In this document: in pieces, positions 43,662-63,921 of the stretch
Layout: every line of letters begins with the position of its first letter
Numbering within the stretch: position 1 is the stretch's first letter
Assembly: GCA_963833125.1 (NCBI GenBank)
Contig: CAWHWX010000028.1
Span: 95,501-159,500, forward strand
Reading direction: 5' to 3'
Source of the DNA: Candidatus Bathyarchaeota archaeon
Lineage (GTDB): Archaea; Thermoproteota; Bathyarchaeia; 40CM-2-53-6
DNA length: 64,000 nucleotides
Position numbers and translations under genes: made by a program
Notes under the pieces: generated by a model
What the model was told of the DNA's origin: nothing
The model's input: only the letters and a program-made list of their open reading frames with translations
The model's database searches: none

Positions 43662-43689
43662 GTGTGTGAGTCTAATGGTGCGCACACAC
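43662..43689 (+). repeat. 28-bp quasi-palindromic repeat, copy A
   Basis: GTGTGTG-AGTCTAATGGTGCG-CACACAC. Confidence 0.85.
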
Positions 43690-43728
43690 ACACGAAAACG
43701 AGTTCAATTTCTTGAGGCGAATACTGGA

Positions 43729-44214
43729 TTATTGTTGCTCGTAAGCCTGCTTCAGAGTCTTTATCTCGATTTTGTCCATTTTGAGCATCGCGTTCATGAC
43801 TCTTTCTGATTTCTCAGCATCTTTGTCTTGTAACATTTCGCCCAAAACGGTGGGAACGATCTGCCATGATAGACCATATTTGTCTTTTAGCCAGCCGCAT
43901 CTTCCTTCCTCTCCACCCTCGGAAAGCTTCTCCCACAACTCATCCACTTCCTCCTGTGTCTCACAGTTCACTAAGAACGATATGGCTTCTGAGAATTTGA
44001 ACTGTGGGCCACCGTTTAATGCCATTAGTTCTTGTCCATCGAGCGAGAATGTAACGATCATTGCCGTTCCCTTTGGTCTTCCGGAGACCTTTGAGCCTTC
44101 TTCTCCATAGCGGGTAACGGTTCCAATTTTCGAATTTTTGAAAATCGACACGTAAAAATTGACAGCCTCTTCGGCTTTATCATCGAACCACAAGAACGGC
44201 GTGATTTTTTGCAT
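43729..44214 (-). CDS. VOC/PhnB family protein (3-demethylubiquinone-9 3-methyltransferase-like domain)
   Basis: [21 protein letters not shown] and [14 protein letters not shown] motifs. Confidence 0.92.
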
Positions 44215-44303
44215 ACGCCCATCCAGAGAGCCATTGAATCGAGTCTTAATTAAATTTCCACAGTTTCTGGTAATACCTTGTCCCAGATAGACCGGGTAAT
44301 CGC

Positions 44304-44399
44304 GCTTGTGGGTGGTTGGCGTGCGCACACACACGAAAACGAAAGACGATGGTCCGCTCTTACCGCTCCTGGAACGGCCGCACCAGGAGATCCACACAC
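44304..44399. repeat. Inverted doublet of the 28-bp repeat (copy B on +, copy B' on -)
   Basis: B: GCTTGTG-GGTGGTTGGCGTGCG-CACACAC (44304-44332, one extra base). B' reverse complement: GTGTGTG-GATCTCCTGGTGCG-GCCGTTC (44372-44399). Confidence 0.75.
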
Positions 44400-44547
44400 G
44401 CAATTACATGAACCAACAACGGATCGAGTTCAATTTGCTCCGCTCGCCTACATCGAAGAATGCAAGGTGTGTCACAGCACGGAAGAACAGGCTAGTGAAA
44501 ATAAAGGGGACAAGTCCAACCTCGCGGAAATTGTAGGCGGACTTTCT

Positions 44548-44853
44548 CTAGTATCCGTATTTCTTTGCTTCTTCACCGAGGGCGGCTACAACCTTGGGGA
44601 ACTCATCTAGACCTACGGCCGGTGATATCTTCACATCTGTCTTGAACAGATAGAAGAACGGCGCGACTTTCCTGGTGAGTTCGTCGTTTGAGTTTGCTTC
44701 CACTACGAAGAAACCGTACCTCAAGGTGAACCAAGCAGCGAGAGGCTTCATTCGCTCTATAGCCTCTCCCATCTTCTTCTGCAAATCCGGACTTTTCTCG
44801 AAACTATTCTTCGCATCTGCAGGAGGATTGAACTCGATCATGTATTTTGCCAT
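44548..44853 (-). CDS. Small hypothetical protein (GYD/DUF3303-like ferredoxin fold suspected)
   Basis: 101-aa ATG ORF with GGAGGTGG SD; KPLAAWF...GFFVVEA...ISPA pattern. Confidence 0.7.
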   Translation of the reverse strand: MAKYMIEFNPPADAKNSFEKSPDLQKKMGEAIERMKPLAAWFTLRYGFFVVEANSNDELTRKVAPFFYLFKTDVKISPAVGLDEFPKVVAALGEEAKKYGY

Positions 44854-45004
44854 AATTATTCCACCTCCTGATCTGTACCGACGAGGCGAATTGCGACCAC
44901 GCCCTCTCCAGCATGTTAGTTAAGGGTATGCCTTATCGCAAATTCGGAAATTCTTCATCAATCAAATTTCTGTTTCTGTTCCTTTGATGTCCAAGAAAAC
45001 GGCT

Positions 45005-45032
45005 TGGGGGGCGCACCATTGATACCACACAC
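45005..45032 (-). repeat. 28-bp repeat, copy C
   Basis: Reverse complement GTGTGTG-GTATCAATGGTGCG-CCCCCCA. Confidence 0.8.
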
Positions 45033-45108
45033 ACTTTATGAACGTTGAAGCCATCTCTGCATCAAGATTCCTTCTAGAAGATCATACAAAGCAAGTAGGG
45101 GTTGTTAT

Positions 45109-62060: not shown

Positions 62061-62315
62061 CGACCCCGTTGTCTTTACGACTTCCTCACTTCCACCCGGC
62101 GTAACATTCCTGTACTTCCCGTCGCAGTACACGCTGAGCTCTCCCACCGCATCGTGGAACGTGCAGGTCAATATCGGCCCTTCCGCTCAGCCGGGGAGTT
62201 ATCCTATAATGATTGCTGCCACAAGCGGTTTTCTCGCCTACAACGCCACCGTCACCGTGGTCTGTCAGTGAGATTCGTAAATTGAACTGGCATCGTAGTT
62301 CGTCGTTTTTAGTCT

Positions 62316-62343
62316 GTGTGTGGGTCTATTGGTGCGCCCCCCC
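62316..62343 (+). repeat. 28-bp repeat, copy F
   Basis: GTGTGTG-GGTCTATTGGTGCG-CCCCCCC. Confidence 0.8.
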
Positions 62344-62354
62344 CAGAAAACTAG

Positions 62355-62522
62355 ATGCAAATCTTCCACAACTACTTACTTACGACCACACATGGTTTTG
62401 AAGGTAAGACTCCTGCTGAGAAAGCGGGAATAGAAGTGAAAGGCAAAGACAAGTGGCTTACCCTAATCCAGAACGCAAGCCAGCGAAAGCTCGTTAGCGA
62501 GTCTGACCGCAAGTCAAATTAG
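62355..62522 (+). pseudogene. C-terminal remnant of a DDE (IS6/IS240-like) transposase
   Basis: Manual translation with indels: QIFHNY..RPHM..EGKTPAEKAGIEVKGKDKWLTLIQNAS, matching the C-terminus I recall for archaeal DDE transposases. Confidence 0.7.
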
Positions 62523-62546
62523 CCCACCCACAGCGCATCTTCGGAT

Positions 62547-62951
62547 TTATCGAAGTTTTGCGAGTTGTTCTGGGGCTCTGGGTTTTCCGTCCTTGAATAC
62601 GGCCTTTGGGACGTAGCGCATCGAGTAGAGTGCCGCTTCGACTAGTACCTTCTCGACATTGCGTCCGAGTTCGGTAAGTTCGTATTCGGCTCGGAGAGGA
62701 TACTCTGACACGATTCTCCTCTTGACAAATCCAGATCGTTGTAGGTCTCGTAGCCTTAGTGAGAGCATCCTCGGGTTTATTCCCTTGATGTTGTCGTGGA
62801 AGCGGCTAAACTGAGTTACGCCTCCAAACATCTCTCTAAGGATCTGAACGGTCCAACGTTTTCCTAAAATTTTGAAAGCAACTTCTATGGGACAGGTCTT
62901 CGTCAGCCCTTTGCAGAATGAATGCAGTTCTTCTATTGTTGTTACGCTCAT
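62547..62951 (-). CDS. HxlR family transcriptional regulator
   Basis: CPIEVAFKILGKRWT, INPRMLSLRLRDL and EYELTELG motifs. Confidence 0.92.
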   Translation of the reverse strand: MSVTTIEELHSFCKGLTKTCPIEVAFKILGKRWTVQILREMFGGVTQFSRFHDNIKGINPRMLSLRLRDLQRSGFVKRRIVSEYPLRAEYELTELGRNVEKVLVEAALYSMRYVPKAVFKDGKPRAPEQLAKLR

Positions 62952-63062
62952 GTTCAGGTTACACTTCTGTAAGCTGGTATCACGAATGTTACGCGAGATT
63001 AATAAGGTTACTTTAGTATACTTGCTATTGATTTACAATAGTATCTCAGGAAAGGGTTCGAT

Positions 63063-63815
63063 ATGTCACGTAAACTTGAAGGAAAAGTTGCGGTCATAAC
63101 TGGCGGCAGCAGTGGTATAGGTTTGGCAACAGCGCAACGATTCGTTAGTGAAGGTGCTTACGTATTCATAACGGGTCGTCGTCAAAGCGAGCTTGACGCA
63201 GCAGTGAAAAAGATTGGAAGAAACGTTACGGCTGTTCAAGGCGACGTTTCAAATCTCGCTGACCTTGACCGATTGTACGCGAAGGTGAAGGAGCAGAAAG
63301 GCCGGATTGATATTGTCTTCGCTAACGCGGGTATGGTGGAATTGGCTCCATTGGGTGCGATTTCGGAGGCGCATTTCGACAAGACCTTTGGTGTAAACGT
63401 GAAAGGAACACTCTTCACGGTACAGAAGGCGCTCCCGCTGCTTCAGGACGGTGGATCGATCATGCTAACTTCCGCGATTGCAGGATCGAAAGGGCTTGAG
63501 AGACTCGGCGTTTACAGTGCCACTAAGGCCGCGCTACGATCCTTCGCCCGTTCCTGGACTGTTGACCTGAAAAGTCGGAAGGTACGTGTCAACGCCATTA
63601 GTCCTGGTCCCATAAACACGCCAATCCTAGACGGACTCGTACATACTGAAGATGAGCGTAAACAGCTGAAGGCGAGTTTCGTGGCTGGCGTTCCTCTGGG
63701 TCGTATGGGTGAGCCGGACGAAATCGCGAAAGCCGCCGTATTCCTAGCATCGGACGACAGTAGCTTCGTAACTGGTATCGAACTGTTCGTCGATGGAGGA
63801 ATGGCACAAATCTAA
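63063..63815 (+). CDS. Short-chain dehydrogenase/reductase
   Basis: TGGSSGIG, NAG, YSATK, NAISPG and VDGG motifs; divergent from the HxlR gene. Confidence 0.95.
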   Translation: MSRKLEGKVAVITGGSSGIGLATAQRFVSEGAYVFITGRRQSELDAAVKKIGRNVTAVQGDVSNLADLDRLYAKVKEQKGRIDIVFANAGMVELAPLGAISEAHFDKTFGVNVKGTLFTVQKALPLLQDGGSIMLTSAIAGSKGLERLGVYSATKAALRSFARSWTVDLKSRKVRVNAISPGPINTPILDGLVHTEDERKQLKASFVAGVPLGRMGEPDEIAKAAVFLASDDSSFVTGIELFVDGGMAQI

Positions 63816-63893
63816 GCATCCGAAATTGGTCGATCAAAGAATCCTGATTATGTGATAGGCAGTCACGGTTGGAGGCCAAGTTCTCGTAAGGGG

Positions 63894-63921
63894 GGGTGCG
63901 GGTCTATTGGTGCGAACACAC
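63894..63921 (+). repeat. 28-bp repeat, copy G
   Basis: GGGTGCG-GGTCTATTGGTGCG-AACACAC. Confidence 0.78.

Follow-up and report, generated by a model that had tools for sequence, protein, structure and literature searches.

Introduction

In plasmids of Acinetobacter, small dif modules are bounded by 28-bp Xer sites and contain no dedicated recombinase gene. Repetitive extragenic palindromic (REP) repeats and bacterial interspersed mosaic elements (BIMEs) are short and intergenic, sometimes form inverted pairs and occur with REP-associated tyrosine transposases (RAYTs). The dif site is described as a 28-bp site, with two 11-bp inverted arms and a 6-bp spacer (PMC2958812). In a review of archaeal tyrosine recombinases, archaeal attachment (att) sites are described as 40–50 bp long, with a preference for the 3' end of transfer RNA (tRNA) genes, sometimes reaching past the gene (PMC8371274). 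Integron arrays without an integrase, including those of Archaea, are described as rows of one-gene accessory cassettes with a recombination site (attC) at the 3' end, most of them with no integrase nearby; attC sites are more alike within a lineage than between lineages, and integron cassettes are common across taxa (PMC9668308). Bathyarchaeia are not mentioned in the main text of that paper. Here, we analyse a dispersed repeat in a 64,000-nucleotide stretch from a Candidatus Bathyarchaeota archaeon (assembly GCA_963833125.1, contig CAWHWX010000028.1, positions 95,501 to 159,500 of the forward strand), which we call the window. A preliminary description of this DNA had read the repeat as a 28-bp quasi-palindrome delimiting accessory gene modules.

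Anatomy and comparative data agree that insertion, loss and replacement of small gene cassettes take place with the repeat copies as borders, and that these borders carry a sequence copied from the end of a tRNA gene used as an attachment site. The system works like the accretion of elements at tRNA attachment sites and like an integron, yet it is a member of neither as these are defined.

The repeat family

The genome to which the window belongs (G000; 3.07 Mb in 39 contigs, 88% complete, with a contamination estimate of 7%) was compared with draft bins of relatives (G006, G009, G016, G018, G032 and others, with 1–10% contamination); gene calls were crude and made within this analysis. G000 contains strain-variant contigs at 88–98% identity (C2/C3 against C16, C6/C29 against C18, C11/C31 against C16), which fits the contamination estimate.

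The motif had been proposed to have the fixed form GTGTGTG-N14-CACACAC. The window has a single exact match, at 43662, where 100 shuffles predict 0.00. Allowing two mismatches gives six matches, representing four distinct places (43662 in three registers, 58089, 58934 and 61495; 0.18 expected). Comparison of the eleven reported copies places the conserved part in the left arm GTGTGTG and the 14-nucleotide (nt) core, GGTCTAATGGTGCG and close variants. The right arm is variable and can be CACACAC, a C/G run, or a longer T-loop-like stretch ending in AATTTGAACC. The second arm varies among copies, and the motif is not a fixed 7-14-7 arrangement; the two arms are complementary at six or more of seven positions in only 98 of 400 strong sites, about a quarter. 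Folded as single-stranded DNA, one of eight window copies performed better than its shuffles (z = −3.1). Given the few complementary arms and this folding result, a conserved hairpin is no part of the element. Rfam gave no match at E ≤ 1 for window positions 40000–64000, and the sole match at gathering score among ten other loci was a tRNA.

When two mismatches are allowed, the 15-nt core has 39 occurrences in G000 and the reversed pattern two. From the G000 copies a 39-column position matrix was made, using the reversed matrix as a control and cut-offs of 20 and 12. Scanning the genome with such a matrix had been suggested in the preliminary description, and gave 82 sites against none for the control at a score of at least 20, and 98 against 7 at a score of at least 12. 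The copies are intergenic, as had been claimed: 76 of the 82 site centres are outside called genes (coding fraction 0.771, binomial p = 1.7e-41). The other six are 11–59 nt from a called start, and these starts were probably called too early. Sites are also clustered, with 68 of the 82 having a neighbour within 5 kb (mean 18.5, maximum 32, in 200 random placements).

Nine places in the window score 12 or more, from 24.7 (58088, minus strand) to 40.1 (43662, plus strand). Seven of the nine main copies reported before were recovered outright and that at 58089 with a weaker score, while 44304 is only a degenerate copy, containing an indel and scoring below 12. Of the two copies reported as weaker, that at 22026 scores 28.3; that at 62518 bears no resemblance to the repeat.

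Origin from a tRNA gene end

On the other strand, a full copy consists of a T-loop (GGTTCAAAT), the 3' strand of an acceptor stem, an encoded ACCA, a 7-nt trailer (TTAGACC or CCAGACC) and CACACAC. The core reads CGCACCA, then TTAGACC, and is followed by CACACAC. A T-loop like GGTTCAAAT and an acceptor-like stretch are present at tRNA spacing in 151 of the 400 strong sites. An intron-rich tRNA gene with the acceptor GCGGCCG is found on three strain-variant contigs, C6, C18 and C29. Searched by itself, the C29 gene (locus L009, 4459–4616) has 34.3 bits against RF00005; its end runs CCGGG-TTCAAAT-CCCGG, CGGCCGC, ACCA, CCAGACC and CACACAC, and reaches a repeat-matrix score of about 42. A second tRNA gene with an identical acceptor (C16:463652-463744, 48.2 bits) is followed by a weaker version of the trailer, and the other tRNA genes of G000 do not have it.

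Judged from its sequence, the repeat is a copy of the 3' end of one tRNA gene plus 14 nt of its flank, and so matches the usual place and size of archaeal attachment sites, as far as these are described in PMC8371274. The copying also explains why the centre of the motif is directional. This property had been recognised before, but its origin had been missed: in reverse complement, the motif is a tRNA 3' end with its trailer.

The intron-rich tRNA is probably a glycine tRNA, with anticodon loop CUGCCAC and thus anticodon GCC, in our own reading of one cmscan alignment. The ARAGORN isotypes for the two key tRNAs, Ala(tgc) and Phe(aaa), were ruled out by the cmscan alignment and the G3-C70 pair. 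ARAGORN reported 7 tRNAs without its intron option and 31, mostly dubious, with it; only 19 tRNA matches were obtained in G000 because most of its tRNA genes carry introns.

Three further observations concern tRNA genes and their ends. On C29, the 5' part of the intron-rich tRNA gene contains a 1.7-kb insertion (L009 4600–6343) with an intact NHL-repeat gene; a directly repeated stretch of about 22 nt from the 5' end of the tRNA flanks the insertion, which is absent from C6 and C18. The 368-residue product of the gene beside this tRNA had been a candidate integrase, and was rejected as an NHL-repeat protein. On contig C9 (locus L022, 3780–6961), a second tRNA (acceptor GCGGGGG, 6773–6961, minus strand) and a copy of its own 3' end near 3850–3899 bracket a glycosyltransferase and a methyltransferase gene, with two tRNA-end repeats just inside; a 393-residue candidate integrase in C9 turned out to be a glycosyltransferase. 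Past the T-loop, L022, C11 and C14 share a conserved stretch of about 45 nt that includes two small hairpins.

Cassette anatomy

When the G000 sites are sorted by arm type, the CA/GT arms face 58 gene starts and 25 stops (p = 0.0004), and the T-loop arms face 18 stops and 8 starts (p = 0.08). In the tRNA sense, a cassette is therefore organised as a CA run, an upstream region or promoter with an open reading frame (ORF), a CGACG-rich spacer, and finally the T-loop, acceptor, ACCA and trailer. Head-to-tail cassettes give T-loop-type sites, and cassettes placed head-to-head around one core give the palindromic GTGTGTG-core-CACACAC sites. The latter, which we call A-type, account for 153 of the 400 strong sites, the others lacking the second arm, and in G000 12 of 29 lie between divergent gene starts. 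Cassette orientations are mixed, and 50–200 nt upstream of the ORF are retained. Tandem units of 45–75 bp (about 62 bp) are gene-less cassettes. Reading the 60–70-bp arrays as clustered regularly interspaced short palindromic repeats was ruled out, with the "spacers" themselves being conserved and orientations mixed. Clustering of 724 ORFs from 80 loci, intended to expose a recombinase as a recurrent neighbour, gave no family present in more than ten loci; the largest is KaiC-like.

The window contains the following repeat copies and cassettes, with matrix scores where available.

22026–22053, minus: repeat copy, score 28.3, with a T-loop-like arm; isolated, inside a 17.4-kb segment absent from G016
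43662–43689, plus: repeat copy, A-type, score 40.1, both arms exact; G032 homology stops 6 nt earlier
43690–44371, minus: PF06983 (glyoxalase/VOC-like 3-dmu-9_3-mt) cassette; 84% copy on another G032 contig
44304–44331, plus: degenerate repeat copy with indel, score below 12; back-to-back with the copy at 44372
44372–44399, minus: repeat copy, score 25.0; arm like the GCGGCCG-type tRNA acceptor
44400–45004, minus: DUF3303 single-gene cassette; copies in G018 (92%) and G034 (89%), where the core locus is 70% and 69% identical
45005–45032, minus: repeat copy, score 33.1, GC-run arm; G032 homology restarts 8 nt beyond
45033–47275, plus: katG cassette, gene at 45109–47265; 96% copy in G017 (core locus 67%); 3' side without repeat
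58089–58116, minus: repeat copy, score 24.7; first site beyond the conserved ATP-synthase block (G016 synteny ends at 58040)
58117–58933, minus: dienelactone hydrolase cassette, gene at 58175–58840
58934–58961, plus: repeat copy, A-type, score 34.9
58962–61494, plus: module of an S74-domain protein, an ORF without family and DinB, with a degenerate T-loop-type tail at about 61453–61494
About 60879–61474, plus: DinB part of this module; identity 95% to G032, 91% to G016 and 89% to G009
61495–61522, plus: repeat copy, A-type, score 35.0; kept with DinB in G016, decayed in G009, absent from G032
61523–62315, plus: module with an ORF of no known family, listed as 61473–62060; true start probably beyond the repeat
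62316–62343, plus: repeat copy, GC-run arm, score 36.2; between convergent gene ends
62344–63893, both strands: module of a remnant (62355–62483), HxlR (62547–62951, minus) and SDR (63063–63815, plus)
63894–63933, plus: repeat copy with a T-loop-like extension (AAATTTGAACC), score 38.7

The contig ends 67 nt past the last copy, in sequence common to contig C39. Most gene labels of the preliminary description stand (VOC-like, now PF06983, DUF3303 for the small hypothetical protein, katG, dienelactone hydrolase, S74, DinB, HxlR and SDR), and so does its placement of the copy at 62316 between convergent gene ends; for the ORFs it labelled "PEF-CTERM" (60384–60797) and "SRPBCC-like" (61473–62060), neither Pfam nor NCBIfam gave a family.

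Cassette replacement at the repeats

Cassette arrays begin at the intron-rich tRNA gene. Contigs C6 and C18 are 92–97% identical to C29 on both sides of the array, but the cassettes that separate the tRNA end from a fixed distal site differ: a KaiC-like gene in one variant, and a glyoxalase-like gene plus a KaiC fragment in the other.

In the window, homology to G032 (84%) stops at 43656, 6 nt before the site at 43662, and restarts at 45040, 8 nt past the site at 45005–45032. Between these breakpoints, which enclose three sites, G032 has different DNA. G016 (80%) lacks 43526–47535; the respiratory and ATP-synthase genes at 47535–58040 are present without any site, and homology is lost again at 58040, 49 nt before the next site. 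Also missing from G016 is 21345–38726 (17.4 kb), which includes the isolated copy at 22026. Consequently, all nine window sites are in DNA missing from G016 at these positions. The earlier proposals that the first copy of each cluster marks the boundary between core and accessory DNA, and that the repeats delimit accessory modules of one to three genes, agree with these comparisons: where strain variants or relatives have gained, lost or replaced modules, the breaks fall at the repeats.

All-against-all alignments of G000 and the site-bearing loci yielded 12 alignment rows of 0.53–0.95-kb cassettes in which sites mark three or more of the four ends. Some of these rows are reciprocal or represent the same few cassettes, and nine of the 12 have no adjoining homology. 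Examples are a cassette shared by C14 and C16 (96%), a set in C32, C39, L103 and L078 (91–97%), and the window DUF3303 cassette in L045 (92%). Taken over all alignments, 71 of 1180 ends fall inside the 40-nt interval around a site. Gaps that hold a site comprise 13 cassette-sized replacements and no clean insertion of a bare repeat in G000 and the loci compared. Some indels beside sites are one-ended.

Cassettes are shared between species, with 89–96% identity where the core locus has only 67–70%. This yardstick, one neighbouring core locus, is 67–71% identical to most members of the genus, 83% to G032 and 80% to G016. The katG cassette is 96% identical in G017 and 87% in G031, and the DUF3303 cassette 92% in G018 and 89% in G034. 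The HxlR and SDR genes have 93% identity to G006 (core locus 70%), and DinB has 95%, 91% and 89% identity to G032, G016 and G009.

Distribution among genomes

With a 19-nt pattern and up to three mismatches, the motif was found in 17 of 18 other genomes of the genus, mostly in 9–54 copies, with 0–1 for controls. Among twelve genomes of other genera in the order, ten have none and two a single match. The exact pattern occurs in 106 stretches of species-representative genomes. Among the 80 listed, all but seven come from records titled Bathyarchaeia, Bathyarchaeota or "archaeon RBG_16_50_20", and the seven are short contigs in bins of other names. The exact 38-nt form is present in more than 120 metagenome contigs. 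We found no description of the repeat in the literature, although the supplements to PMC9668308 might include arrays from these genomes.

Eighty species-representative loci, together 578 kb, contain 268 sites. The spacing between neighbours is bimodal, with one mode at 45–75 bp and the other at about 450–3000 bp. Elements at tRNA genes are flanked by direct att repeats; here, head-to-tail arrays are present in C6 and C32/C39, but neighbour orientation overall is near random (++ 59, −+ 46, +− 44, −− 39).

Search for a recombinase

The preliminary description had called for a recombinase gene co-occurring with the motif. One contig has an integrase gene 265 nt from a site; in the genomes, none is tied to the sites. 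This contig, L142, comes from IMG/VR (58% complete) and was the one convincing contig in viral scans with three patterns. It encodes a 363-residue Xer-like integrase with a C-terminal zinc ribbon (PF00589, E = 3.5e-9), and the nearby site is of the T-loop type and scores 44.5. Virus-side genes are located on one side, the only match to a tail protein being weak, and past the site comes a KaiC-like gene resembling those of the host. Of 23 genomes of the genus, 10 encode homologues of this integrase. Two further IMG/VR contigs (GC content 51%) also contain the repeat, at L169 9219–9313 and at L173 874/L174 1186, in one case as an inverted pair; the parts of them examined encode no homologue of the L142 or the window integrase.

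At E ≤ 1e-5 there are ten PF00589 matches in G000, and no site lies within 5 kb of any of them. The window itself encodes an integrase (37707–38708, minus strand), a homologue of the L142 protein with 35% identity. Its gene lies at the right edge of the segment 21345–38726, about 5 kb from the first site. The best solved-structure matches of the protein are archaeal XerA proteins (E = 5.5e-11), and it scores 79 bits against the XerA_Arch model, which has a cut-off of 220. At about 37561–37740, in another frame, a separate piece matches the zinc ribbon that ends the L142 protein, so that the window gene may be frameshifted. Elsewhere in G000, six tyrosine-recombinase genes are crowded into 13 kb at the start of contig C16 (1–13000), with no tRNA-end repeat nearby.

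A proposed mechanism

We consider it fairly probable, if far from assured, that the repeats belong to an active att-like system whose enzyme is supplied in trans, the simplest candidate being an Xer-like integrase of a provirus or another element, and that homologous recombination plays a part. The 28-mer would be the conserved heart of genus-wide att-like recombination sites derived from a tRNA 3' end. Cassettes would integrate and excise by conservative recombination at this tRNA-like site, catalysed by an Xer-like tyrosine integrase that arrives on a mobile element, for example the provirus-like contig L142. Crossing-over between repeats by the host probably contributes. The cassette pool is common to the species of the genus. 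The recombination reaction itself, including the recombinase in trans, we infer from the arrangement of the cassettes and their breakpoints.

Several results weigh against this mechanism. The genome G018 is 98% complete in five contigs and contains 41 pattern copies at about 20 loci, yet it is free of recombinase genes: there is no match to PF00589 even at E ≤ 1, and none to PF00239 (resolvase) or PF01797 (HUH transposase). G000 likewise has no PF00239 or PF01797 match. Eight queries against 1.34 Mb of site-centred DNA (226 loci with 640 sites) identified only three integrase-like places, at 1.1–2.1 kb from the nearest site. Of 12 chromosomal loci with homologues of the L142 integrase, none has a site in the flanking 1.5 kb or so, which leaves the link to a provirus resting on one contig. 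Several highly identical cassette copies have no site beside them (katG in G031, DinB in G032, DUF3303 in G034), the site after DinB is decayed in G009, and the 3' side of the katG cassette has no site in any genome examined. Both orientations of the 14-nt core are seen in front of one and the same cassette, always with the junction at the CA run, which is unexpected for a tyrosine recombinase with an asymmetric overlap. Finally, no circular or empty-site junction was seen in Logan contigs of four sequencing runs, which comprise short pieces only.

None of the public sequencing runs holds a 7-kb stretch of this DNA, the best share of words being 0.17. Two candidate junctions were rejected as too weak: a contig, X2, in which 61471 and 58933 are joined across opposite strands (shorter side 31 letters, 90% likeness), and a record, X3, joining 63933 back to 62315 with six letters between.

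Alternative explanations

The absence of recombinase genes from G018 despite its 41 copies, and the rarity of integrases near sites, would also fit passive scars, left by past integrations at the tRNA gene and look-alike sites and now shuffled by host recombination over 28–45-bp repeats with no dedicated enzyme. Junctions at the low-complexity CA/GT arms with the core either way round are better explained by crossing-over in palindromic arms, and the one-ended indels point in the same direction. Against this, the 21-nt core is nearly intact across species with 67–70% core-gene identity, whereas neutral scars should decay unless all are recent. The consistent cassette polarity and the gene-less units with both ends look like a defined element, and the distribution is genus-specific with dozens of copies per genome. 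On balance, we regard passive scars as rather unlikely.

A different enzyme is a tentative and rather doubtful proposal. It would make the repeats an integron-like gene-capture system of soil and peat Bathyarchaeia, in which promoter-bearing single-gene cassettes ending in a tRNA-Gly 3'-end mimic are inserted, inverted and exchanged between species at the 21-nt core. Its enzyme would fall outside the tyrosine, serine and HUH families, because at least one site-rich, near-complete genome encodes none of them.

A selfish REP-like repeat or miniature inverted-repeat transposable element (MITE), with a unit of about 62 bp copying itself into intergenic DNA and only a secondary link to variable genes, would account for the tandem and paired units 45–75 bp apart and for dozens of copies per genome, some with palindromic arms. 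We think this improbable. Clean presence/absence polymorphisms of a bare unit are lacking against the 13 cassette-sized replacements, and the copies are confined to variable DNA. Hairpin potential is absent from most copies, as described above. No PF01797 (HUH) match was obtained in G000 or five relatives (G018, G014, G011, G013 and G016), so that the analogy with REP and RAYT systems drawn in the preliminary description does not hold in any of the six genomes searched.

We give equally little credence to a cis-regulatory role, as operator, promoter element or RNA motif, in a regulon of stress and signalling genes including katG, AhpC, DinB, VOC and KaiC-like genes. The flanking genes are indeed rich in stress, detoxification and signalling functions, and both the bias of CA/GT arms towards starts and the 12 A-type sites between divergent starts could be read in this way. 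However, 14 of the 82 sites lie between convergent gene ends and the distances to starts range from below 50 to above 1000 nt, which extends the argument against an operator made earlier from the single copy at 62316. An Rfam match and a conserved hairpin are both lacking, and regulation leaves both the breakpoints at sites and the identity with a tRNA end unexplained.

A known system, either a canonical integron array with attC sites and no IntI or Xer/dif-like modules recombined by host XerA, is very improbable and largely refuted: although most accessory cassettes contain one gene, A-type copies allow by eye an 11-6-11 reading with 8 of 11 arm positions matching, and G000 has Xer-like integrases including that in the window, it is sequence rather than fold that is conserved, cassettes in both orientations keep their own upstream regions, no integrase adjoins the arrays, the window integrase falls far short of the XerA cut-off, G018 has no tyrosine recombinase, and neighbour orientations do not alternate.

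Comparison with described systems

As in tRNA-targeting integrative elements, the block of about 45 bp shared between copies, from the T-loop through ACCA into the trailer, matches the end of a real tRNA gene; arrays start at the tRNA gene, which stays intact, and cassettes are stacked head-to-tail. Unlike in those elements, there are about 80–90 sites per genome at some 20 loci, mostly far from tRNA genes, and the units are single genes without an integrase, with at least one site-rich genome having no resident integrase at all. Many sites are head-to-head, and gene-less units exist.

With integrons the system shares arrays of mostly one-gene accessory cassettes with a 3' site, a greater likeness of sites within a lineage than between lineages, the presence of cassettes across taxa and an integrase that is mostly not nearby. 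In contrast to integrons, the sites are sequence-conserved copies of a tRNA end rather than folded attC sites, there is no IntI, attI or common promoter, and cassettes are found in both orientations with their own upstream DNA.

The preliminary description had pointed to the dif modules of Acinetobacter, which resemble the present system in their 28-bp sites, imperfect inverted arms, asymmetric centre and small accessory modules without their own recombinase. The analogy fails in other respects: both arms are present in only about a quarter of copies here, orientation is near random instead of alternating, the sites come from a tRNA end and not from dif, and the Xer gene is missing from the site-rich G018. 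REP repeats and BIMEs are likewise short, intergenic, sometimes paired in inverse orientation and present in dozens of copies, but here there is no HUH gene and no conserved hairpin, and the copies are confined to variable DNA, where they coincide with breakpoints of gene content.

If the proposed att-like system is real, uncultivated archaea that are abundant in soil and peat would hold in common a pool of genes for stress, detoxification, signalling and transport. Genes such as those for catalase-peroxidase, DinB, peroxiredoxin, KaiC-like ATPases and transporters would move between species as small cassettes, in an archaeal counterpart of integrons built on a different kind of site. The pool would also offer a handle on adaptation to oxic soils, as illustrated by katG (96% identity, against 67% for the core locus). 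The 21-nt core provides a sequence tag for the cassette pool in metagenomes and a bait for the recombinase.

Other repeats and remnants in the window

A dispersed repeat of about 150 bp at 59147–59297 has 27 copies in G000 and 82–86% copies in several genomes of the genus; a short palindrome lies within it, and Rfam gave no match. Of the 27 copies, only 3 are within 500 bp of a tRNA-end repeat, making it a separate family. The remnant of about 125 bp at 62355–62483 has eight copies in G000 and 72–85% copies in many genomes of the genus. Its translation may represent the C-terminal tail of a DDE transposase, in agreement with its earlier labelling as a transposase remnant. Downstream of katG, window positions 47330–47530 read by eye like a fragment of an NHL-repeat protein gene.

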